Of a DNA stretch of 64,000 nt, positions 1-37,719 are shown one piece after another. Both the position numbers and the translations under genes were made by a program. The DNA is taken from positions 270,072,001 through 270,136,000 of the forward strand of contig OZ024741.1 in assembly GCA_964016885.1 (NCBI GenBank), in the 5' to 3' direction. The notes under the pieces were generated by a model, which made no database searches, was not told where the DNA came from, and saw nothing but the letters and a program-made list of their open reading frames with translations. The stretch is from Eledone cirrhosa (Eukaryota). Numbering within the stretch: the first letter of the stretch is position 1; each line of letters starts with the position of its first letter.

Positions 1-3000
1 TTACGGGACATTGCCTCAAAACAGTGTATGTCAATACAGTGCCACTACGACTCCCTCGAGAGTTACGGGACCTTGCCATAAAACAGTGTATGTCAATACA
101 GTGTCACTACGACTCCCTCGAGAGTTACGGGACATTGCCATAAAACAGTGTATGTCAATTCAGTGCCACTACGACTCCCTCGAGAGTTACGGGACATTGC
201 CACAAAACAGTGTATGTCAATACAGTGCCACTACGACTCCCTCGAGAGTTACGGGACCTTGCCATAAAACAGTGCATGTCAATACAGTGCCACTACGACT
301 CCCTCGAGAGTTACGGGACATTGCCATAAAACAGTGTATGTCAATACAGTGCCACTACGACTCCCTCGAGAGTTACGGGACATTGTCACAAAACACCGTA
401 TGTCAATACAGTGCCACTACGACTCCCTCGTGATTTACGGGACATTGCCACAAAACACCGTATGTCAATACAGTGCCACTACGACTCCCTCGAGAGTTAC
501 GGGACATTGCCCCAACACACCGTATGTCAATACAGTGTCACTACGACTCCCTCGAGAGTTACGGGACCTTGCCATAAAACAGTGTATGTCAATACAGTGC
601 CACTACGACTCCCTCGAGAGTTACGGGACCTTGCCCCAAAACAGTGTATGTCAATTCAGTGCCACTACGACTCCCTCGAGAGTTACGGGACATTGCCTCA
701 AAACAGTGTATGTCAATACAGTGCCACTACGACTCCCTCGAGAGTTACGGGACCTTGCCATAAAACAGTGTATGTCAATACAGTGCCACTACGACTCCCT
801 CGAGAGTTACGGGACCTTGCCATAAAACAGTGTATGTCAATACAGTGCCACTACGACTCCCTCGAGAGTTACGGGACAATGCCACAAAACACCGTATGTC
901 AATACAGTGCCACTACGACTCCCTCGAGAGTTACGGGACATTGCCATAAAACAGTGTATGTCAATTCAGTGCCACTACGACTCCCTCGAGAGTTACGGGA
1001 CCTTGCCATAAAACAGTGTATGTCAATACAGTGCCACTACAAACTCCCTCGAGAGTTACGGGACAATGCCACAAAACACCGTATGTCAATACAGTGCCAC
1101 TACGACTCCCTCGAGAGTTACGGGACATTGCCATAAAACAGTGTATGTCAATTCAGTGCCACTACGACTCCCTCGAGAGTTACGGGACCTTGCCATAAAA
1201 CAGTGTATGTCAATACAGTGCCACTACGACTCCCTCGAGAGTTACGGGACCTTGCCATAAAACAGTGTATGTCAATACAGTGCCACTACGACTCCCTCGA
1301 GTGTTACGGGACATTGCCATAAAACAGTGTATGTCAATACAGTGCCACTACGACTCCCTCGAGAGTTACGGGACATTGCCATAAAACAGTGTATGTCAAT
1401 ACAGTGCCACTACGACTCCCTCGAGAGTTACGGGACCTTGCCATAAAACAGTGTATGTCAATACAGTGCCACTACGACACCCTCAAGAGTTACGGGACAT
1501 TGCCACAAAACACCGTATGTCAATACAGTGCCACTACGACTCCCTCGAGAGTTACGGGACAATGCCACAAAACACCGTATGTCAATACAGTGCCACTACG
1601 ACTCCCTCGAGAGTTACGGGACCTTGCCATAAAACAGTGTATGTCAATACAGTGCCACTACGACTCCCTCGAGAGTTACGGGACATTGCCATAAAACAGT
1701 GTATGTCAATTCAGTGCCACTACGACTCCCTCGAGAGTTACGGGACCTTGCCCCAAAACAGTGTATGTCAATACAGTGTCACTACGACTCCCTCGAGAGT
1801 TACGGGACAATGCCACAAAACACCGTATGTCAATACAGTGCCACTACAACTCCCTCGAGAGTGACGGGACATTGCCATAAAACAGTGTATGTCAATACAG
1901 TGCCACTACGACTCCCTCGAGAGTTACGGGACAATGCCACAAAACACCGTATGTCAATACAGTGCCACTACGACTCCCTCGAGAGTTACGGGACATTGCC
2001 CCAACACACCGTATGTCAATACAGTGCCACTACGACTCCCTCGAGAGTTACGGGACCTTGCCATAAAACAGTGTATGTCAATACAGTGCCACTACGACAC
2101 CCTCAAGAGTTACGGGACATTGCCACAAAACACCGTATGTCAATACAGTGCCACTACGACTCCCTCGAGAGTTACGGGACAATGCCACAAAACACCTATG
2201 TCAATACAGTGCCACTACGACTCCCTCGAGAGTTACGGGACCTTGCCATAAAACAGTGTATGTCAATACAGTGCCACTACGACTCCCTCGAGAGTTACGG
2301 GACATTGCCATAAAACAGTGTATGTCAATTCAGTGCCACTACGACTCCCTTGAGAGTTACGGGACCTTGCCATAAAACAGTGTATGTCAATACAGTGCCA
2401 CTACGACTCCCTCGAGAGTTACGGGACATTGCCACAAAACACCGTATGTCAATACAGTGCCACTACGACTCCCTCGAGAGTTACGGGACCTTGCCATAAA
2501 ACAGTGTATGTCAATACAGTGCCACTACGACTCCCTCGAGAGTTACGGGACAATGCCACAAAACACCGTATGTCAATACAGTGCCACTACGACTCCCTCG
2601 AGAGTTACGGGACATTGCCATAAAACAGTGTATGTCAATTCAGTGCCACTACGACTCCCTCGAGAGTTACGGGACCTTGCCATAAAACAGTGTATGTCAA
2701 TACAGTGCCACTACAAACTCCCTCGAGAGTTACGGGACAATGCCACAAAACACCGTATGTCAATACAGTGCCACTACGACTCCCTCGAGAGTTACGGGAC
2801 ATTGCCATAAAACAGTGTATGTCAATTCAGTGCCACTACGACTCCCTCGAGAGTTACGGGACCTTGCCATAAAACAGTGTATGTCAATACAGTGCCACTA
2901 CGACTCCCTCGAGAGTTACGGGACCTTGCCATAAAACAGTGTATGTCAATACAGTGCCACTACGACTCCCTCGAGTGTTACGGGACATTGCCATAAAACA

Positions 3001-5350
3001 GTGTATGTCAATACAGTGCCACTACGACTCCCTCGAGAGTTACGGGACATTGCCATAAAACAGTGTATGTCAATACAGTGCCACTACGACTCCCTCGAGA
3101 GTTACGGGACCTTGCCATAAAACAGTGTATGTCAATACAGTGCCACTACGACTCCCTCGAGAGTTACGGGACATTGCCATAAAACAGTGTATGTCAATAC
3201 AGTGCCACTACGACTCCCTCGAGAGTTACGGGACATTGCCATAAAACAGTGTATGTCAATACAGTGCCACTACGACTCCCTCGAGAGTTACGGGACCTTG
3301 CCATAAAACAGTGTATGTCAATACAGTGCCACTACGACTCCCTCGAGTGTTACGGGACATTGCCATAAAACAGTGTATGTCAATACAGTGCCACTACGAC
3401 TCCCTCGAGAGTTACGGGACCTTGCCATAAAACAGTGTATGTCAATACAGTGCCACTACGACTCCCTCGAGAGTTACGGGACATTGCCATAAAACAGTGT
3501 ATGTCAATACAGTGCCACTACGACTCCCTCGAGAGTTACGGGACCTTGCCATAAAACAGTGTATGTCAATACAGTGCCACTACGACTCCCTCGAGAGTTA
3601 CGGGACCTTGCCATAAAACAGTGTATGTCAATACAGTGCCACTACGACTCCCTCGAGAGTTACGGGACCTTGCCACAAAACAGTGTATGTCATTACAGTG
3701 CCACTACGACTCCCTCGAGAGTTACGGGACATTGCCCCAAAACAGTGTATGTCAATACAGTGCCACTACGACTCCCTCGAGAGTTACAGGACATTGCCCC
3801 AAAACAGTGTATGTCAATACAGTGCCACTACGACTTCCTCGAGAGTTACGGAACATTGCCATAAAACAGTGTATGTCAATACAGTGCCACTACGACTCCC
3901 TCGAGAGTTACGGGACATTGCCCCAAAACAGTGTATGTCAATACAGTGCCACTACAACTCCCTCGAGAGTTACGGGACATTGCCCCAAAACAGTGTATGT
4001 CAATACAGTGCCACTACGACTTCCTCGAGAGTTACGGGACATTGCCATAAAACAGTGTATGTCAATACAGTGCCACTACGACTCCCTCGAGAGTTACAGG
4101 ACATTGCCCCAAAACAGTGTATGTCAATACAGTGCCACTACGACTCCCTCGAGAGTTACGGGACATTGCCCCAAAACAGTGTATGTCAATACAGTGTCAC
4201 TACGACTCCCTCGAGAGTTACGGGACCTTGTCATGAAACAGTGTATGTCAATACAGTGTCACTACGACTCCCTCGAGAGTTACGGGACCTTGTCATGAAA
4301 CAGTGTATGTCAATACAGTGCCACTACGACTCCCTCGAGAGTTACGGGACATTGCCCCAAAACAGTGTATGTCAATACAGTGCCACTACGACTCCCTCGA
4401 GAGTTACGGGACCTTGCCATAAAACAGTGTATGTCAATACAGTGTCACTACGACTCCCTCGAGAGTTACGGGACCTTGCCATAAAACAGTGTATGTCAAT
4501 ACAGTGCCACTACGACTCACTCGAGAGTTACGGGACCTTGCCCCAAAACAGTGTATGTCAATTCAGTGCCACTACGACTCCCTCGAGAGTTACGGGACAT
4601 TGCCTCAAAACAGTGTATGTCAATACAGTGCCACTACGACTCCCTCGAGAGTTACGGGACCTTGCCATAAAACAGTGTATGTCAATACAGTGTCACTACG
4701 ACTCCCTCGAGAGTTACGGGACATTGCCATAAAACAGTGTATGTCAATTCAGTGCCACTACGACTCCCTCGAGAGTTACGGGACATTGCCACAAAACAGT
4801 GTATGTCAATACAGTGCCACTACGACTCCCTCGAGAGTTACGGGACCTTGCCATAAAACAGTGCATGTCAATACAGTGCCACTACGACTCCCTCGAGAGT
4901 TACGGGACATTGCCATAAAACAGTGTATGTCAATACAGTGCCACTACGACTCCCTCGAGAGTTACGGGACATTGTCACAAAACACCGTATGTCAATACAG
5001 TGCCACTACGACTCCCTCGTGATTTACGGGACATTGCCACAAAACACCGTATGTCAATACAGTGCCACTACGACTCCCTCGTGATTTACGGGACCTTGCC
5101 ATAAAACAGTGTATGTCAATACAGTGCCACTACGACTCCCTCGAGAGTTACGGGACATTGCCACAAAACAGTGTATGTCAATACAGTGCCACTACGACTC
5201 CCTCGAGAGTTACGGGACATTGCCACAAAACACCGTATGTCAATACAGTGCCACTACAACTCCCTCAAGAGTTACGGGACCTTGTCATGAAACAGTGTAT
5301 GTCAATACAGTGCCACTACGACACCCTCAAGAGTTACGGGACCTTGCCAT
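1..5350. repeat. 62-bp tandem satellite, about 86 copies in the window (continues off the left edge)
   Basis: Unit TTACGGGACATTGCCATAAAACAGTGTATGTCAATACAGTGCCACTACGACTCCCTCGAGAG with an XhoI site CTCGAG in most units. Ends abruptly at ...ACCTTGCCAT followed by ACATATATG. Confidence 0.98.
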
Positions 5351-5487
5351 ACATATATGATGAGGTGTAAAGCACTTTTGAGTTCTGCTTGTGTTCTGCT
5401 TTATGAGATTTCTGAAAACTAGGATGTGTTGCAAATGTGTATATGTGTGTGTGTTTATGTGCATATGCATATATTTATATGTGTGAG

Positions 5488-13799: not shown

Positions 13800-13884
<85 letters not shown>

Positions 13885-13996
13885 TAAAAGGAATTCCAAC
13901 TTTGTCTGATTTACTCGTTTTATTTACAATCCTTTAAAATTTATAATGGTATTAGAATGAAATAGTATGGTAGAATATTAAATGTTAATTGTTAAT

Positions 13997-14035
13997 TGAA
14001 CAAGTACTTTCATGCTTTCGCAATCTTCAGGTTCA
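13997..14035 (-). ncRNA. Minimal type-I hammerhead ribozyme (minus-strand copy)
   Basis: Exact reverse complement of 14087-14125. Confidence 0.8.
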
Positions 14036-14086
14036 TATTGTGTGGTGACAGTTGAAAATTGCAAACTTAACTGTCACCACATAATA

Positions 14087-14125
14087 TGAACCTGAAGATT
14101 GCGAAAGCATGAAAGTACTTGTTCA
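14087..14125 (+). ncRNA. Minimal type-I hammerhead ribozyme
   Basis: TGAAC-CTGAAGA-T-TGC-GAAA-GCA-T-GAAA-GTAC-TT-GTTCA. Stem I is TGAAC/GTTCA, stem II is GNRA-capped, stem III is the palindrome AGTACT, and the cleavage triplet is CUU. Confidence 0.8.
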
Positions 14126-14295
14126 ATTAACACTTAACATTTAATATTCTACCATACTATTTCATTCTAATACCATTATAAATTTTAAATGATTGTAAAT
14201 AAAACGAGTAAATCAGACAAAGTTGGAATTCCTTTTATTAATATAATCTTCTATACACAATCATACACACCCGTGTATATTTATCTCTCTCTCTC

Positions 14296-17360: not shown

Positions 17361-19585
17361 GTAGAATAATCGAGAATCGGAAAAAACAGCTTACGAATTA
17401 ACGATAAACAGTATCCGATATGTGTGGCAGAGGGCTCAATAATTTGGATAAATCAGAGCTATAACTATCGTTAAAATACCAACACATAGAGATCATGTCT
17501 AAAATCACCCGTACAGCCGAAAAAGAACGACCAGGAAGATTCGGGTCACTCAAATAAAATATCAATAAATCAATAAATTAAATGAATGTAAAAAACTCAC
17601 CCGGACCCGCTAGAAGGATGTTAAATCTAGCTTCTTGGGTTTCTGCAATTCCTTATTCCAATCGCTATCAGCCCACATAAAAAATATATGAGACTTCTAG
17701 AGAAGGGGGGACGAGGAAGAGCTTTCTCAACGGGAATTCCGTCCGACAATGAAGAGAAGACCTTTAGCCAGAAACGCACATGGTACCCAGCAAGGGAGAT
17801 AACCTCTACATTAGCGAAAAATTTTGGTGATGTGCAAATCATGTAAGGATACAAAATATCACATATCGAATCAGAATGCTCAACAGACGTGTTAAAATAA
17901 ACAGGAGCTATTCATCAGTCAATAAGAATGACAAAAAATAATCAATAAAATTAACTGGTCAATAGCTAAGGTCTAGAGCTAAATATAGTAGAATAATCGA
18001 GAATCGGAAAAACAGCTTACGAATTAACGATAAACAATATCCGATATGTGTGGCAGAGGGCTCAATAATTTGGATAAATCAGAGCTATAACTATCGTTAA
18101 AATACCAACACATAGAGATCATGTCTAAAATCACCCGTACAGCCGAAAAAGAACGACCAGGAAGATTCGGGTCACTCAAATAAAATATCAATAAATCAAT
18201 AAATTAAATGAATGTAAAAAACTCACCCGGACCCGCTAGAAGGATGTTAAATCTAGCTTCTTGGGTTTCTGCAATTCCTTATTCCAATCGCTATCAGCCC
18301 ACATAAAAAATATATGAGACTTCTAGAGAAGTGGGGACGAGGAAGAGCTTTCTCAACGGAATTCCGTCCGACAATGAAGAAAAGACCTTTAGCCAGAAAC
18401 GCACATGGTACCCAGCAAGGGAGATAACCTCTACATTAGCGAAAAATTTCGGTGATGTGCAAATCATGTAAGGATACAAAATATCACATATCGAATCAGA
18501 ATGCTCAACAGACGTGTTAAAATAAACAGGAGCTATTCATCAGTCAATAAGAATGACAAAAAATAATCAATAAAATTAACTGGTCAATAGCTAAGGTCTA
18601 GAGCTAAATATAGTAGAATAATCGAGAATCGGAAAAACAGCTTACGAATTAACGATAAACAATATCCGATATGTGTGGCAGAGGGCTCAATAATTTGGAT
18701 AAATCAGAGCTATAACTATCGTTAAAATACCAACACGTAGAGACATGTCTAAAATCACCCGTACAGCCGAAAAAGAAAGACCAGGAAGATTCGGGTCCCT
18801 CAAATAAAATATCAATAAATCAATAAATTAAATGAATGTAAAAAAAACTCACCCGGACCCGCTAGAAGGATGTTAAATCTAGCTTCTTGGGTTTCTGCAA
18901 TTCCTTATTCCAATCGCTATCAGCCCACATAAAAAATATATGAGACTTCTAGAGAAGGGGGGACGAGGAAGAGCTTTCTCAACGGAATTCCGTCCGACAA
19001 TGAAGAAAAGACCTTTAGCCAGAAACGCACATGGTACCCAGCAAGGGAGATAACCTCTACATTAGCGAAAAATTTCGGTGATGTGCAAATCATGTAAGGA
19101 TACAAAATATCACATATCGAATCAGAATGCTCAACAGACGTGTTAAAATAAACAGGAGCTATTCATCAGTCAATAAGAATGACAAAAAATAATCAATAAA
19201 ATTAACTGGTCAATAGCTAAGGTCTAGAGCTAAATATAGTAGAATAATCGAGAATCGGAAAAACAGCTTACGAATTAACGATAAACAATATCCGATATGT
19301 GTGGCAGAGGGCTCAATAATTTGGATAAATCAGAGCTATAACTATCGTTAAAATACCAACACGTAGAGACATGTCTAAAATCACCCGTACAGCCGAAAAA
19401 GAAAGACCAGGAAGATTCGGGTCACTCAAATAAAATATCAATAAATCAATAAATTAAATGAATGTAAAAAAACTCACCCGGACCCGCTAGAAGGATGTTA
19501 AATCTAGCTTCTTGGGTTTCTGCAATTCCTTATTCCAATCGCTATCAGCCCACATAAAAAATATATGAGACTTCTAGAGAAGGGG
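17357..19585. repeat. About 626-bp tandem repeat, about 3.55 near-identical copies, between (TA)n and (TC)n(TA)n
   Basis: GTAGAATAATCGAG recurs at 17361, 17988, 18613 and 19239. The last copy is truncated at AGAAGGGG. Confidence 0.95.
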
Positions 19586-21690: not shown

Positions 21691-21914
21691 GTTCTGGTTT
21701 TATAATTTCACAAATTTTTACCAATAGAGAGAGAGTCGGTTTCTAACACAGACACAAGACTTTCCCATTGGAATTTACACAACATCAACTAGGTAGATAT
21801 GTATGCATGTCTGCATGCATGCATGTTTAGGTATGCATGTTATTGTATGTGTGGATGTGGATGTTTTAAGTTGTATGTGTGCATGTGTATATGCTTAGTA
21901 TCTGTACATGTGTA

Positions 21915-24900
21915 TATGCAACATTTTTGGAATGTTTTACATATTTTTACTGTTCCATTAATGGATTGTACTTGTAGTTTCCTAACTAGTTGTGTTCTTT
22001 CTGTTCCTGTGAAGCCTAGCTTCTCAAGATTTGTATTAAGGCAGTTACTAACATATCCCAGTGCCCCAATAATCACAGGCATAAATCTGAAGGCATAATC
22101 AGGGTGGAGTATCTGCAGATTTTTCATCAGTTCTGCATAAATATTCTCTTTTCCGCTAATCTTTGATATTATATTGGCATCTGCTGGACAGCTAACTTCC
22201 ACTACTGTGCATGCCTTTTCCCTGTCCCATATCATAATATCTGGTCTGTTTTGCCTGCATTTTATTGGGGTTTTTACTGGAACATTCCACCAGTACTCTT
22301 TCATATTATGTATATGTAGGTCTTCCACATTGCTGTAGCTTTTAATGTGTTTATTATCGGGGCTATCTTTTCTATGGATTTCATTGTACAGTGTTTTGGC
22401 CACTACATCATGCCTCATAGGTAGATAGTACCGCGATGACATATTTGGACAGGTGCTTATGACATGGGTGACATCTTCCATGTTAATTCTGCAGAGTCTG
22501 CACTTGTTATCACATCTAGGTGTTTTGCCTGCATCCCTATCTCTTTTGTGAATCAGGTATTTCGTGTTGATTTCCTGTTTTGCAAAAGCGTATCCTTCAA
22601 AGTGGGAGCCAATATAGCGGTTGTTGGTCCAAGATAGACTACTTTCTTTATCTATATTACTCTCACTCTGGAGCTTCCTGGCAACATATCCATGCATGAT
22701 TTTTTGCTGATAAGCATGCAGTTTTTCATCCATGGATTCGCTGAGTTACTGCTGAGCAACTTCCCTGGGTGTGAGTTTTTGATTATCACACAGGGAATAT
22801 CTCTCGAGGAGTTCCTTCCCAACTCTCATGATCTTATCTGTTTCATGCAGATAGACTTGCTCGAGAAACTGGCTCCTACGCTTTGAGGTACGTAGATGTT
22901 GTCGGAGGGATATGATGCGACATTCAAATGCTGTCTGGACTGATGTTAGGCCTCTGCCTCCCTGCTTACGTTTCAAGTAAAGGCGGTCTATGTCACTGTT
23001 GATGTGGAAGTTTCCGATGTTGTTTAGTATTTTTTGAGTTCTAACATCAATCGCTCGGATTTCGTCTATCGTCCAATTGAGTATTCCAAACGTTGGTGTT
23101 AGGACAGGCACAGCAAACACATTGTGAGCCACTGTTTTGTTTTGCGCAGAGAGTTCCGATGACCATATCTTTCTTAATCGGGTGTAGTATTCCCTGGTTA
23201 CGCGTTCCTTATTACAGATACCATTATAGGATATGTTCTCATCTATCCCCAGGTATCTGCAGCAGTCCTCATCAGATATCGGTGAAACAGTTAGACCATT
23301 GATACAAATGTTGCTGGATTGGGTTGTTTTTCCCCGCTTTACAGTCATATATGAGCATTTATCTTGGCCAAACTCCATTCCTATATCCTTTGAGAATGTT
23401 GTAACCAGGTCAAGATTTTTCTTCATCCCATCCATGTTCTTGGCATAGAGTTTCAGATCATCCACAAAAAATTATGGGTTAGGTTCGTATTTCTGTCCTG
23501 CTGCTGTGAGCCTTCACATTTCTTGAGTAGAAAGGACAAGGGGTTTAATGACAAGATGAATAATATCACAGAGAGACTGTTTCCCTGAAATATACCCCTG
23601 CGATATTTTATTTTATCAGTGAAAATAGAGTTCTCCTTCTCTGTCTTTAACTTTAGGATAGTAACCCAAGAAGAAGACAGCCTCTCTATGGCTCTGATAA
23701 TAATGTCTGGGACTTTAGCAAGTCGTAGGGCCTCTATCATCCAAGAGTGGGGAACAGAATCAAAAGCTTTACTGTAGTCCAGCCAGACTAGCCATATTCC
23801 TCCTAAGTTGCACCTCCGACATCGCAGTTTTGTTGATTAGGAGTTGTTCAGCACATCCCCAAACCCCTTTCTTTCCAGCTGCTTGTTCATCTGTGATGAT
23901 ATTATTTTCACAGTGATCTTGGAGGAATAGGTTCAGGCAGGCTGTATACATCTTATACATCAGGTTCTGGCATGCAATGAGTCGGTAGTTTTTTTGCCAG
24001 GTAGGTGTCTTTGTTCTTGGGGACCAGTAATGTTTGTGCTAATGTCAACCATTCTGATATAAGTGTATCTCCCTTAAGAACTTGTTGGTAGAGGTCGGTA
24101 AGATACCTCCGATAGAATATCAATTTTTTGTACCAGTAGCCAACAATCATGTCTCTTCCTGGTGTTTTTTATCTTGGAGTTTTCCTATCACAGTCTCAAG
24201 GGTACCCTCACTTATTTCGTATGTTTTTGTTGTAGTGTAGGAGCAATAGTTCTTTCGGATTTCTCTTAGCCACACTGCTTCTTGGTTGAAATTCTTCATT
24301 TCATCCCATATTTTTCTCCAAAAGGAATCTAGTACTTTCTGGAATAGGACTTCAGTGACACTTATTATTTTGCCCTCCATATCTCTATAGACTGATGTTT
24401 GGTTTCGTCTGAATCTTTTATTAAGCACTTTTCTCTCATCTACCTTCTTCAAGTATCGGCGTTTTTCGCTAACAGCTCTTGATTCTTGTTTGAGGGTGAT
24501 CAGTTTATATTGAAGAGTTCTGGTTCTACTGTTACCAAACATCGTCTCTATTTTATTTTTCACTCTTTGTTGATGAGGAGTGAACGTTTTTTGTGTTAGT
24601 TTGCATATAAGGAGCATTGTCACATATCCTATGGTTTTTCGTAGGTCAGCAATCTTTTTTTCTATTTTAGTTATATATGATGGTATTTTTGGTGGTGTTT
24701 TGTTCTTCATATCTCTGCTATCACTGTCGTTGCTAAGGCATATAAACAGGCGTTGATTTGCCAAAATGTTGGGGTTTTTATCCGTCGTAAATATCCATCC
24801 CCTATTTCGTCAATAACAGGTAATATTTCATTATTTGGTTTTTTATTAAATATTGTTGTTTTAAAAAGTTCAGCAAGAGAAATGTTTATACATGAATTAA

Positions 24901-25560
24901 TTTCTCTCTGGAAGATTTCGTTGGGGGAAATTTTCAATTGTTTATACTTTTGATTATTATCATTATCGATAGTATTTTCCACAATAGTCGAGGTAGACTC
25001 GGATGGTACACGTGGTGTCAAATTTCTTAGATTATTATTATTATCGATAGTGTTTTCCCCAGCATTCGAGGTAGACTTAGATGGTACACGTGGTGTCAAA
25101 TTTCTTACAGGCATAGTTGTTTCAAGGCACTGTTCGACGTGGCTGCTAGGAAGTCTAGTAGCATGGCGACCTGTAGCACGTGTTGTTGATCCCATGTTTG
25201 TTGTGGGGTATTACAAATAATAATATTTATCTTATTTTTACGTTCAACAAACGTCGCTTGTTAGCGTAATTGTTTCGCCGTGAAGTGATTTAGCTCTGGG
25301 TGTATTTCGTCCCAGTGTAGCTTCCTTCTGTTGATATAGCCAATGGAGGGATTGTTTTTTGCCATTTTATAACAATTAAATAAATCATCATTAAGTTCGC
25401 AACTCCAAGAGAAATGCGATTTATAATTTCGGTTTCTTCTGTAGCTACAACTGAATAAATTTTGTTTACCTTTCTCATTTTTCTTCGGTACTCCACTGAT
25501 GTTTTTGTTGATGCTGTATTCAGCCATGCTGTTTGTAGCAAATCCTTGTAAAATGAATTA
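21915..25560 (-). mobile_element. Near-full-length, frameshifted R4/Dong-like non-LTR retrotransposon (RT + restriction-like endonuclease)
   Basis: N-terminal Myb-like WSCELNDDLFNCY...GY.NRRK.HW..IHP...TAKQL. RT motifs YKMYTACL, EQAAGKKGVWGCAEQLLIN, KAFDSVPHSW, RRGIFQGNSLSVILF, MDDLKLY, GGRGL. CCHC knuckle CRLC..EDVTHVISTC, then RHD, RPDI..WD, EVSCP, K..Y (PD-(D/E)xK nuclease). Split over about 8 ORFs. Confidence 0.93.
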
Positions 25561-27065: not shown

Positions 27066-27193
27066 TAGTCCTTCATCAGAAGAAAGAATGAGAAATAAAA
27101 TCGATTGAGGGGACGGGCGGGATGGAATTGGAAAAACATGTCTTTGGATAAAAATAACAGGTGCATTCATGTTGACATCTCTTGCAAAACTGC

Positions 27194-27195
<2 letters not shown>
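27066..27195 (-). mobile_element. HHR-bearing short element family D, copy truncated inside the ribozyme
   Basis: Nearly identical to 31215-31336. The minus strand ends TTCTT-CTGATGA-AGGACTA then (TA)n. Confidence 0.7.
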
Positions 27196-27227
<32 letters not shown>

Positions 27228-27241
27228 TATGTGTGTATATA

Positions 27242-27326
<85 letters not shown>

Positions 27327-27329
27327 ACA

Positions 27330-27392
<63 letters not shown>

Positions 27393-27401
27393 GTACATAT
27401 A

Positions 27402-27454
<53 letters not shown>

Positions 27455-27592
27455 AAGAGTTAAACAAAATTCAATGAGTATATCAAAGAATGAGTTTTAC
27501 AGTAGATTGTAAGCACTCTACGGAAAAATAATTTCCCGGGGTTATTAATATTAGAATATAAATATTAATAAAATAGATGTTCTTTTGATCAA

Positions 27593-27653
27593 TTACATTT
27601 TATTATACATATTTCGGATGTACAACAGTACGTCCTCATCAGACAAAATATAA
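27593..27653 (-). ncRNA. Type-I hammerhead ribozyme, intact core
   Basis: Minus strand: TTATATTTTGT-CTGATGA-GGACGTAC-TGTT-GTACATCC-GAAAT-ATGT-ATA-ATAAAATGTAA. Stem I is 11 bp, stem II pairs at 7 of 8, stem III is quasi-palindromic ATATGTAT, and the site is AUA. Confidence 0.85.
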
Positions 27654-27910
27654 TGATACATGACATACCCTGAGATGTTAAATGGTTAAGATTTAATCAA
27701 GGTAGTGATTAACCTAAGAGAAAATTTAATATTTATACCCTAATAATAAGAAAATGCGAAAACGTAATAAATTCAATACATTCTCTATTGAATTTATTAC
27801 GTTTTCGCATTTTCTTATTATTAGGGTATAAATATTAAATTTTCTCTTAGGTTAATCACTACCTTGATTAAATCTTAACCATTTAACATCTCAGGGTATG
27901 TCATGTATCA

Positions 27911-27971
27911 TTATATTTTGTTTGATGAGGACGTACTGTTGTACATCCGAAATATGTATAATAAAATGTAA
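27911..27971 (+). ncRNA. Hammerhead ribozyme copy with a C3-to-U core substitution
   Basis: Identical to the minus copy except TTGATGA instead of CTGATGA at 27922. Confidence 0.75.
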
Positions 27972-28036
27972 TTGATCAAAAGAACATCTATTTTATTAAT
28001 ATTTATATTCTAATATATATATATACATATACATAT

Positions 28037-28101
28037 AACAGTTTTGCAAGGGATGTCAACATGAATGGACCTGTTATTTTTATCTAAAGACATTTTTTCC
28101 A
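28037..28101 (+). mobile_element. Family D fragment, inverted relative to 27066-27195
   Basis: CAGTTTTGCAAG.GATGTCAACATGAATG.ACCTGTTATTTTTATC.AAAGACAT is the reverse complement of 27135-27192. Confidence 0.75.
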
Positions 28102-28489: not shown

Positions 28490-28525
28490 TTTCCTGAAGA
28501 AGGACTAACATCCAAAGCGCCAGAC
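28490..28525 (+). ncRNA. Decayed minimal hammerhead
   Basis: TTC-CTGAAGA-AGGACTAACATCC-AAAGC. The first box and stem II resemble 30412-30437, but the GAAAC box is mutated. Confidence 0.35.
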
Positions 28526-28782: not shown

Positions 28783-29147
28783 ACATATAAAATCAAGGGA
28801 GTGTAAACACAGAAAATATCTTTAAAAATAATAAATAAATTCAAAAAAAATTCACTGTATTTACTATATGTGCCCTTATGTTTCAGATCCCCAACAAATA
28901 GATAATCCAAGCGGATTTCCATTGAATGGCGCCAGTTTGTAATTTTAACTCGGAATGTTATATTCTCCGAGAGAGAAAAGCCTTCTGACGATGATCTCTT
29001 CTCTAATGAAAATCCGCTTGGATTATCTATTTGTTTGGGATCTGAAACCGCAGTAAGGGCACATATAGTAAGTACAGTGAATTTTTGGAATTTATTTATT
29101 ACTTTTTAAGATATTTTCTGTGTTTACACTCCCTTGATTTTATATGT
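28783..29147 (+). mobile_element. Fold-back element (about 140-bp diverged arms, about 80-bp spacer), Penelope pLTR-like
   Basis: 28783-28923 versus 29005-29147, inverted, with several mismatches and indels. The right end runs into a TA tract. Confidence 0.85.
28980..29060 (+). ncRNA. Type-I hammerhead ribozyme with a long loop II
   Basis: GCCTT-CTGACGA-T-GATCTC...GGGATC-T-GAAAC-CGCA-GTA-AGGGC. Stem I is GCCTT/AGGGC, stem II is GATCTC/GGGATC, stem III is AC/GT, and the site is GUA. Confidence 0.8.
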
Positions 29148-31129: not shown

Positions 31130-31336
31130 CAACACAACCGGTACAGTATATGGAAGGGATATATTAGGTTAACGCTTGATATAGCAGGAAGAGGATCTTA
31201 ACGTTTCGGGCACTAATCCTTTTTCAGAAGAAAGAATGAGAAATAAGATAGATTGAGGGGACGGGCGGGTTGGAATCGGAAAAAATCTCTTTAGATAAAA
31301 ATAACAGGTCCATTCATGTTGACATCTCTTGCAAAT
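31130..31336 (-). mobile_element. Family D short element containing a minimal hammerhead at 31196-31231
   Basis: Minus strand TCTT-CTGAAAA-AGGATTAGTGCCC-GAAAC-GTT-AAGA, with stem I TCTT/AAGA and palindromic AACGTT stem III. The sibling at 27066-27195 retains CTGATGA. Confidence 0.7.
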
Positions 31337-31339
31337 ATA

Positions 31340-31803
31340 TATATATATCCTTTTCTGCAAAATATACGCTATCCTTTCTACAATATATATACACTATATC
31401 TTCTACAATATATACACTATCCTTTCTACAATATATACACCATCTTTTCTACAATGTATACGGTGTCTTTTATACACTATCTTTTCTACAATATGTACAC
31501 TATATTTTCTGCAATATATACACTATATCTTCTACAATATATACACTATATCTTCTACAATATATACACTATATCTTCTACAATATATACACTATATCTT
31601 CTACAATATACACACTATATCTTCTACAATATACACACTATACTTTTACAATATATACAACATCTTTTCTACAATATATACAACATCTTTTCTACAATAT
31701 ATAAACTATTTTTCTACAATATATACACTACCTTTTCTACAATATATCGTTTCTACAATATATACACAATACTTTTATAATATATACTCTATCTTTTCTA
31801 CAA
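31340..31803. repeat. 23-bp minisatellite, about 20 copies
   Basis: Unit TATATACACTATATCTTCTACAA, degenerate at the edges. Confidence 0.9.
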
Positions 31804-33819: not shown

Positions 33820-35145
33820 AGTTATATATGTTATCTCTTTCTCTTAATTTCGAGTATATTTTTTTTGACCGGCCACCTTCCTGGTGGCATGATTGTAAAA
33901 GAAAAGAAATTGTCATCCCTTGAATCGCAAGAATGTTTTGCAAATTTTGAAGGTGCCATCTATCGCAGCCATTTGTAGACTATGAATTAGGGAGCTGCGC
34001 TTTTTGTCCGCAAATCCAAGTTCAGTCATACTTTGGTCCAAGCGGGTTGGTTTATAACCCGTAGCTCCAATAATGATGGGTATGAAGCTAAAGGTGTATC
34101 TTGGATACTGGATTTGTAAACTCCTCATCAATGGTCCGTAGATGTCCTCCTTCTCCTGTATTTTTCTGACAACGTTTACATCAAGTGGGCAGCTGATCTC
34201 CACAACAGAACACGTTTTCAATGTGTGGTCCCAAACAACAATATCAGGCCGGTTGTGCTTTAATTTGGTGGCAGTTTTTATTTTCAGGTTCCACCAGTAT
34301 TCCTTAGTGCCATCTGTCTCAATATATTCTTCCTCGTTGGTTGTTAATTTTGTTTTCCGAAGTGCGTTCCAGATGGTTCTAGCTATCCCATCGTGTCTCA
34401 TGGGGAGGTAGTAGCGAGATGACATTCTTTCGCAGCTGGCAACAATGTGGCTTACATCCTCGATCTTTGTTTTACATAGCCTACATTTATTGTCAGCTGC
34501 TGGCCCTCCTCTTTTGTGCAGCAGATATTTGGTAGGGAGTTCTTGTTCCTGTATTGCATAGAGATATCCCTCAAGATGTGATGTCATAAACTTGTCGGAA
34601 CTCCATGCCAGGCTTTTTGAGTGGTTTATCCCCTCTATGGTCTGTGTTTTACGTCTCAAGTATCCATGCACAACTTTTTCTGTAAATTGGTCAATTTTTT
34701 TATCTTGTTTGAACATTGATTAGGATCTTCCGATTTCTCTGGGTGAGAGATTTATATCAGGCTTTATTCCATATCTCTCCTCCAGATCAGTCGCTATTCT
34801 AATGATATTTCTTTTTTCATGCTCATAAACCTGGGCAAGATTGTTGCCAACCTTTTTCCTCTGTTGAAGGTGTTGCTTCAGTGTTACTATCCGGGTCTCA
34901 TATGTTGTTAATATTGATTTTAGAGCCCGGCCACCTTCCTTGCGTGAGAAGTATAGCCTATCCACATCACCATTGATGTTAAAGTTCCCAGTAACACTGA
35001 GAAGTTTGCGAGTTCTAACATCCATCTCACTTAGTTCTTGCAATGACCAGTTCAGCAGGCCAAATGTTGGCGTTAGAATTGACACAGCATAAGTATTGTG
35101 GGCAATGTTGTACGCTGACAGTTCTGATGACCATATTTTCTTTAC
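33820..35145 (-). mobile_element. 5'-truncated R4/Dong-like RLE retrotransposon, second family
   Basis: KIWSSELSA, LTPTFGLLNW, DVDRLY..RKEGGRAL, AIQEQEL, CRLCKTKIEDVSHIVASC, RHD, RPDIVVWD, EISCP, KEDIY, IIIGATG. Homologous to but diverged from 21915-23200. Both ends lie in (TATG)n. Confidence 0.92.
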
Positions 35146-35271
35146 ATATATGTATGTATATATGAATGTATGTATGTATATATGTATGCATGACTGTGTG
35201 TATATATGTGTATATATGTATGTATGTATATATTTATGTATGTATCTGTATATATATATATAGAGAGAGAG

Positions 35272-37022
35272 AGATATGTTTCTTTATTAGCTACAGGGGC
35301 ACAAAAGAGGGGGACAAATACAAAGGGGGAAGTTTACATACAATAAAAATGTGTAAAATATTATCACAAATGCAATTTAAAAATTAGTCGATTTCCCCAA
35401 TAGGAGGAGACATTACATATGGGTAACACATACCCACGAAAAAATGTGCAACCCTCATCTCCAGGAGTACGAAAAGTTTGTACTCCCTTCCTCTCCTCCT
35501 CTTTTACCTCAACCTACAGGCTGATATAGAGAGAAGGCCCATTCACTCGGGCCATTCTCGCCACTTTCACCCACCTTTCATAAAACTTGCTGGGGTACAG
35601 CACCTCTCTCTCTATCCTGATTCTTCTTCCAAAGTGGTATTTGAAAAAAATAATCAGTTGTTGGCCGGAGAGAAAGGTGTCTGACCTCAGCCCTTTCAAC
35701 CTTGTCCACCATACAACCTCTTTCGCTATAGCTATCACACAAAGTAAAACCGCCTCTCCTTCGTTTTTGAAGGAGGGTGGCGGTTTGATCATGACAATGG
35801 ACTCGGTGGTCAATATGATTGGTCCCACCCGCGACAATAGTCGTTCTACATAGCCCCACAGGTCGGTGACGCCCGGGCAGTGTATGAATGCGTGCGCGAC
35901 GGTTTCTTCGTCTCGCAGGCACCTCGGACAGATCTTTTTTGCAGGGTCCCTGCCCGGGCGCCCATGTCTGTAGAGCTTGTCTCGAACTGGTAGAGCTCCT
36001 CGGTAGCACTGCCAGGCCAGGGACTTTTGGAAGTTGTCCATCGGTCCCGGGCGGAAAGTCCTACCGAACAGACTGGCCAGTTCGTCTTCCTCTACGCCTA
36101 GAGTTCCACCGAGCGCGTCGTCGCACTTGCTGCGGATCAACCCTCTATAGAATGACGAAGTGGCGTCTCCACTGATCTCCGGGTCCGCCTGCCAGAGGGC
36201 TGTGAGAGCCTGAGCACATTCGATGTGCCAGTCGCCCATTTTCCTCGGTCTTTGCTTGACCCAGGACTGCAGCTCGGTCAGCGAGACGAGTCCTGGGAAG
36301 GCTCGCCTCACGAACGGGGCCCACACCGGTTGTCCGGTGAGGAATACGTAGAGATGCCGCAGCCTGAGCGCCTATTTGCGCATCGTCAGCCACGGAATCC
36401 CCAGCCCTCCGTTGGAAGGGTGTTGGCAGCAGATGGATCTCCTCACCAAAGGAGCCCGCCTCTTCCAAAGGAATTGGAAGAGCGCGCGCTCCATTTTGGT
36501 GAGCGTTTTGGCTGGACAAGGTACGTCGGTCAAGCGGTAGTAGATGGCGGGCGCTATAAAAGTGTTCGCCACCTCCGCTCAACCTTTCAAGGATAGTTTG
36601 CACTCGGCCCACTTCTGGGTGAGTGCAAACACCTTGGCCGTCACCTCGTTCCAGTTTTATCCACCTGGAGGTCCGGACCAAACCAGACCCCGAGCAGCTT
36701 TACCGGTCCTTCCGTCCAGCGTGCGACGACGCCATCGGAAGGCATCGGTTTGCCTCTCCACGATCCGAGTTGCAAACCGATGGACTTTTCCCGGTTCAGC
36801 TTCGCTCCTGTGAACCTTTCGTATTCCTTCAGTACGGTGCCGACTTCCTCGATTTGCGAGGCGCTCGACACCATTACAGCCATGTCGTCGGCGTAGGCCG
36901 ACGCCGCTTTCCGCAGTCCCGGTTCCGGAGGGATGCCCTGCAAAAGCTCCAGCTTCCGCAGTAGTGGCTCGAGAGTCAGTACGTACAGAAGGGAGGAGAG
37001 AGGGCATCCGTGTCGAATGGAT
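35272..37022 (-). mobile_element. Tx1/L1-clade LINE, 5'-truncated (RT 3' half, Cys-rich C-terminus, 3' UTR)
   Basis: SIRHGCPLSSLLYVLTLEPLL, SAYADD, GAKLNREKS, GGLGIP, GALPVRDKL, CPRC..EETVAHAFIHCP. AATAAA at 35288-35283, then ATATCTCTCTC. GC-rich; a few stops and frameshifts. Confidence 0.92.
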
Positions 37023-37719
37023 CGTAGATAGATAGATAGATAGATATAGATATAGATATAGATATAGATATATAGATATATATATAGATATAGATATAGA
37101 TATAGATATAGATATATATAGATATATGTGTGTATCATTTTTTTATAGATATTTTTTCTATGTGTGTGTATATGTCTATGCATATGTATGTGTATGTGAA
37201 GAGATGTTTTATAGGAGGTAGAAGTGGAAGATCGTTCTGTAAGATATAACCCAAAACACTTCCAGTGAAATGAAGGGGTGAAATGAAGATAGTGATCATA
37301 AAATTACAATATTTATTTTCTGCTAATGACATTAATCGATTACGACAAATCGATATAGAAAGGTTTGTTATAATGTAAATAACACATATTCACTAAAGAC
37401 AATTCGATCATATACTATTCTTCTTTGTTGGGGAGGAGGCAGTATGATATAGAGTTACAGGAAATACTCGTGTTCGTAAGACGCGAAAAATATATTTTCG
37501 ACAGCGAATTTCTTCGTGTTTTTTTGTTTTGTTTTTGTATTGTTTTCTTGAGAGGGGGGGGGGGTTACGCCTAAATCCTTGCAGAGCTGTAGGGAACGCT
37601 GTAGTGACATACGGCGATGCTTGAGTCATTTGTTTAAATGCCTGATGGAACACATCTCCTCTCCAGATCTGAATATGACCGGATTTAGCTCAAAAAAGGA
37701 AAGAGTGATTAAGAGGATG

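Follow-up and report, generated by a model that had tools for sequence, protein, structure and literature searches.

Why should the only difference between the two arms of an almost perfect palindrome fall on a catalytic residue of a ribozyme? This question is raised by a locus in the genome of Eledone cirrhosa, within a window of 64,000 nucleotides (the whole stretch of DNA that was analysed). Computed comparison of the two 231-nt arms, 27548-27778 and 27786-28016, showed that G27642/T27922 was the sole non-complementary pair, giving CTGATGA in the minus arm and TTGATGA in the plus arm. This matched exactly the original prediction of 231-bp arms with one mismatch, and no further mismatch was present. 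Such a palindrome is far beyond chance, and the difference falls on position C3 of the hammerhead core.

Anatomy of the palindrome and its hammerheads

The whole insertion spans 27453-28016 and consists of two outward-facing arms with (TA)n on both flanks. The extent given earlier, 27548..28016, was right for the arms and too short for the element, which reaches 95 nt further left to 27453. Its identity as the stub of a Penelope-like element (PLE) had been missed. The features, with the evidence for each in brackets, are as follows.

27194..27452, unstranded: (TA)n-rich microsatellite to the left of the target (sequence)
27453..27547, minus strand: one-sided 95-nt tail of the minus arm, a PLE tail signature, ending in (TA)n (family 3' ends)
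27548..27778, minus strand: left arm, an inverted 5'-truncated pseudo-LTR copy (arm comparison, family copies)
27592..27654, minus strand: minimal type I hammerhead whose core is canonical, C3 being the complement of G27642; predicted cleavage between 27604/27603 (motif scan, structure evaluation)
27779..27785, plus strand: 7-nt spacer CATTCTC, which is the sequence found immediately upstream of the plus arm in the family (family copies)
27786..28016, plus strand: right arm, a 5'-truncated pseudo-LTR whose 3' end is the family's main 3' end and joins (TA)n (arm comparison, family copies, family 3' ends)
27910..27972, plus strand: minimal type I hammerhead carrying C3->U (position 27922), its cleavage predicted between 27960/27961 (motif scan, structure evaluation)
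27922..27922, plus strand: the lone arm difference, derived T where the family allele is C (arm comparison, family counts)
28017..28036, unstranded: (TA)n-rich stretch to the right of the target (sequence)

The inversion junction is at about 27778, and the spacer is assigned from family copies, which read ...ACACATTCTC|TATTGAA. Both arms contained the same hammerhead frame, with a 12-bp helix I, an interrupted 7-bp helix II, GAAA, a 2-bp helix III and the cleavage triplet AUA. The core CUGANGA ... GAAA ... UH together with helices I and II was complete in the minus arm, and the plus arm deviated from it at U3. The helix III loop was self-complementary and of the dimer type, AUAUGUAU pairing with itself with the inclusion of two G·U pairs. 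An Rfam scan of the window returned 0 matches at the gathering threshold, and no hammerhead model was matched, so it is the motif scan and the evaluation of the structure that identify the hammerhead. The lowest-energy fold predicted for the isolated 63-mer was not the active one (-13.8 versus -9.4 kcal/mol).

A change of C3 to U should lower hammerhead activity, because C3 forms a pair with G8. That pairing, which the original prediction had invoked, is described for the hammerhead core (PMC3088659) and is supported by the loss of PLE hammerhead cleavage in both C3G and G8C mutants (PMC11167929). A literature search found no measurement for C3U itself, and none of the titles or abstracts listed concerned U3·G8.

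A family of Penelope-like elements

When one arm was searched against the animal's own 3.0-Gb genome, 2,201 candidates were obtained, 40 of which were scored. The exact 29-mer of the hammerhead core, with position 3 left free, had 2,322 matches in the genome, compared with 0 for a reversed-pattern control. Position 3 was C in 2,281 of these copies, and T27922 is therefore the derived allele. Among 264 distinct fetched copies, the 3' ends formed two clusters, with 100 copies ending at arm position 231 and 103 at positions 320, 324 or 326. Seventy-four outward-facing pairs were found among them, most consisting of one tailed and one tailless arm joined to (TA)n; (TA)n flanks were present at the window copy and at most of the fetched copies.

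Inverted pairs up to 4.3 kb apart enclosed RT/endonuclease frames. In longer copies (L061-L065 and L217-L221) the terminal repeat was contiguous with a frame that, by its motifs, encodes an RT together with a C-terminal GIY-YIG endonuclease. YRDD, DKT and CxCx5C linker motifs were present in the six longer loci examined (DKT in L219, L220 and L221; CxCx5C in L217-L220), and CxxC and CxH flanked the endonuclease end near the conserved E and N (CALC and CLH in L062 and L063). RWK was found in none of the six long loci, the sole frame that reached the N-terminal region (L220) reading RWR. Two of the element's frames had no Pfam match at E≤0.001, and the clade call therefore rests on motifs, by which the family is a Penelope-like retroelement of Hydra-clade type. 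Naiad, the first guess, was ruled out by the C-terminal position of the endonuclease and the presence of a hammerhead. At L066-L067 the two arms of one family copy, about 11.8 kb apart, enclosed another Penelope-like element, distinct from this family and with an open frame of 1,279 aa.

Comparison with the published Hydra-clade EN+ PLEs (PMC8557442) showed the same coding features: a C-terminal GIY-YIG, DKT, the CxCx5C linker, and CxxC and CxH around E and N. The pseudo-LTR hammerhead, the (TA)n insertion and the inverted 5'-truncated copy with a one-sided tail are also shared, and supplementary file S1 of that work (Craig et al. 2021) includes a family named Hydra-1_Obim. The differences are that the Hydra clade has RWK where the one copy here reaching the region has RWR, that the tail is about 95 nt here as against the 30-40 bp given in the paper, and that the window copy, unlike the full elements described there, has no coding sequence. 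Inverted truncated PLE copies with a one-sided tail were already described in that source.

The hammerheads resemble the minimal type I motifs of metazoan PLEs (Cervera and de la Pena 2014, PMC4209133) in their very short helix III and palindromic loop, and helix I, at 12 bp, is longer here. As described in that paper, these minimal hammerheads are predicted to require a dimer, single copies were uncleaved in vitro and dimers were cleaved weakly, and pairs on opposite strands 100-700 bp apart were already reported. The natural core covariation given there is U3-A8, whereas the plus arm here has an uncompensated U3·G8. The green anole Poseidon PLE (Frangieh et al. 2024, PMC11167929) belongs to a different clade. 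It shares with the present family AT-rich targets, a requirement for C3-G8 in cleavage, and a one-sided tail that is accounted for by two start points of reverse transcription. In that study, cleavage of the anole hammerhead depended on assistance from the element's protein and was dispensable for insertion in vitro, and mutants still inserted; the mutants described there include C3G and G8C but not C3U.

Age of the insertion and origin of the lone difference

If T27922 were an error of the assembly consensus, the arms would be identical. We regard this as very unlikely, although the public runs offered only family-wide alleles, with no read or contig tied to the locus: contigs were swamped by other family copies, with none of the listed pieces bridging the inversion junction, and RAD reads from three other individuals carried alleles found throughout the family. 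Those same family reads had letters other than C at position 3 in 16 of 1,117 cases, near the assembly's 1.8%, and the same C->T change was present in 28 other copies. Differences between arms are also the norm in the family, with a median divergence of 1.8% and a zero difference in only one of the 67 pairs that remained after 7 of the 74 had been excluded, before counting, as cross-pairs or poor alignments. Nor is the palindrome a fold-back assembly artefact, which was ruled out by arm ends that differ in the family-typical manner. An assembly error at T27922 is in sum unlikely.

The original prediction described the element as very young or homogenised. Youth is plausible, since one difference in 231 nt is few beside the family median, and the insertion is likely to be young by this sequence comparison. 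The element's enzyme would cut the TA repeat, and one RNA template would be copied onto both cut ends with early truncation. A single template is suggested because two alleles, at arm positions 31 and 49, are common to both arms and are found together nowhere else in the assembly. The C->T change could then have arisen in one arm during reverse transcription or later in the germ line; A-to-I editing was ruled out as its source by the derived allele, which is a C->T change.

Alternatively, the insertion could be older, with its arms kept alike by arm-to-arm conversion and T27922 a recent change still unconverted. The two shared alleles fit this reading as well, as does the unpaired tail, which differs from its closest subfamily at 3 of 95 nt. 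Conversion would change the age of the insertion and leave the neutrality of the difference as it is. We consider it doubtful at this locus, and no homogenisation was seen across the family. Similarity between arms was no greater with spacers of 20 nt or less (91 differences in 3,892 sites) than with spacers above 200 nt (45 in 2,317), the intermediate class of 20-200 nt having 59 in 3,372. Shared rare alleles were not enriched in pairs with short spacers (5 versus 6), and were also found in arms separated by 3-4 kb, which is what copying from a single template would give.

The paired arms of the family also indicate how often a lone difference should fall on the core. Outside the search pattern, arm differences were found at 10 of 400 core sites and 168 of 7,314 non-core sites (p=0.73). 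An apparent lack of G/C core differences (0/174 versus 66/1,813, p=0.003) was an artefact that came from choosing loci with an exact pattern of the core, and the split test showed no difference. The probability that a lone change falls on one of the 12 core sites was estimated as 0.056, and that it falls on C3 itself as about 0.007 per palindrome. At least 15 outward-facing pairs were counted by hand among the first 100 family places, which extrapolates to roughly 350 pairs, and exactly one difference was found in 3 of the 18 pairs not selected on a variant. Together these values lead to an expectation of about three palindromes whose lone mismatch is in the core. Three were seen: the window copy, L091 (C3->G) and L177 (G5->C). 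Lone differences at non-core sites were found in L116, L053, L061, L186 and L201.

Among 15 pairs in which C3 was changed in one arm only, the change was on the longer (tailed) arm in seven and on the shorter arm in eight, and C3 was changed in both arms of two further pairs (hand counts). The same core mutation was observed in both arms at L186 (C3->T), G000:C17:37546285-37546444 (G8->A), G000:C18:19531859-19531988 (G8->A) and G000:C1020:21870-26627 (G5->A). This suggests either that damage to the ribozyme does not prevent insertion of the RNA, or that the arms were converted.

C3 changes across the genome and the question of selection

The original prediction proposed that the change may reflect selection against cleavage of a plus-strand transcript. 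In that case a hammerhead on the plus strand would have cut a host transcript, such as an intron, and C3->T would have been fixed for the relief it brought. It is true that the sole difference strikes the residue whose pairing with G8 matters. Moreover, in counts of single-site variants set against the 2,281 canonical 29-mers, C3 was the most often altered of the three core sites tested, with 41 variants (29 T, 7 A and 5 G) compared with 28 at G5 and 21 at G8 (p=0.03). Changes at G8 and G5 should be equally good knock-outs, however, and these were the rarest variants. A context-matched control was provided by the non-catalytic C203, which lies in the same TCT context 66 nt downstream and was altered in 78 of 3,018 copies, 41 of these changes being C->T (hand count of the listed variants). 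C3->T was found in 29 of 2,322 copies (1.25%) and C203->T in 41 of 3,018 (1.36%), a ratio of 0.92 (95% CI 0.57-1.48, p=0.81), and so there was no excess over the matched control. These counts cap any genome-wide excess of C3->T at about 1.5-fold; by arithmetic from the limit of 1.48, they are compatible with an enrichment of up to about threefold confined to a quarter of the copies. C3 variants were not enriched in palindromes either (17 of 40 fetched loci compared with 21 of 60 in the control set, p=0.53; counted by hand, with flanks of 1.5-2.5 kb).

The non-core variants numbered 43 at C151 (helix II), 78 at G153 (loop II) and 121 at G135 (helix I), and inherited variants may inflate such non-core controls and mask a small C3 excess. 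The three core sites had fewer variants (mean 30) than these three non-core sites (mean 81). The deficit may mean that selection maintains the hammerhead in copies that are actively moving, but the comparison is confounded by sequence context. The two most variable sites were both TGT, and no C->T deficit was seen against the matched TCT control.

The predicted behaviour of the RNA also argues against cleavage of a host transcript. Because the ribozymes point outwards, RNA read through the locus on either strand would make the antisense arm first and should fold into the 231-bp hairpin, with a predicted energy of about -375 kcal/mol, in which the mismatch of the plus RNA is a G·U wobble. The predicted cost of forcing the hammerhead fold was 85.9 kcal/mol for the plus strand and 82.1 kcal/mol for the minus strand, and the pairing probability of helix I within the hairpin was predicted to be below 1e-44. 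The ribozyme is predicted to be sequestered in the hairpin of any read-through RNA, and neither hammerhead should cut, whatever the base at position 3. No same-strand partner for a dimer was found beside the window palindrome. The 126 low-complexity-filtered frames of at least 55 aa in window positions 5,400-38,200 contained no host exon, short exons being able to escape this limit; the only domains recognised in them were RT and zf-RVT, apart from one PUB match below threshold.

With no excess over the matched control, no bias between the arms, a ribozyme predicted to be sequestered and no host exon in these frames, selection for host relief at this locus is highly improbable. The caveat attached to the original prediction, that a single event may be chance, is the best reading of C3->T. 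The locus is very probably a truncated back-to-back insertion of the ribozyme end of a PLE in a TA repeat, with the lone C3->T a neutral copying error or later mutation.

It is conceivable, though we give it very little credence, that at a minority of loci within host transcripts sense PLE hammerheads do cut pre-mRNA, for instance where the hairpin has been loosened by RNA editing or where a dimer forms with a further copy, and that hosts select core mutations like C3->U. In that event a single genome, with its thousands of paired arms, would provide a measure of in vivo ribozyme activity that has its own internal control. A literature search, with subscription journals mostly outside its scope, found no study of host selection on PLE hammerheads. 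The insertion pattern and the opposite-strand hammerhead pairs are known already and the mismatch behaves as background, so that the present case matters little in itself. Its value is one of method: each paired insertion has its own control arm, there are hundreds of pairs in the family, and once the genome is annotated they could be used to test cleanly if host RNA is ever cut by minimal PLE hammerheads.

Retroelement fragments, microsatellites and two satellites were seen in the window. An older high-copy repeat flanks the TA run of the stub in inverted pieces, 27066-27193 (minus) and 28036-28101 (plus), with 67 nt at 93%, and the young element is likely to have landed inside this older insertion. 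The older repeat has a hammerhead-like core of its own, and related pieces were found near 28494, 12344, 30436 and 31214-31348. A second palindrome, at about 13880-14243, has 174-nt arms with 3 mismatches, all outside the core, and outward-facing hammerhead-like cores that read CTGAAGA ... GAAAGTACT. A third, at 28783-29147, is older and belongs to another family (145 nt at 91%). Sequence containing CTGATGA occurred three times on the minus strand, at 17918, 18543 and 19169, about 625 nt apart. Broken non-LTR retrotransposon frames with RVT_1 and zf-RVT were located at 21840-25210, 33913-35283 and 35514-37303, all on the minus strand. The satellites occupy 38212-64000 and 1-5351, and comprise a 47-bp repeat in at least 548 copies (96% matches, with strong GC skew) and a 62-bp repeat in 86 copies.
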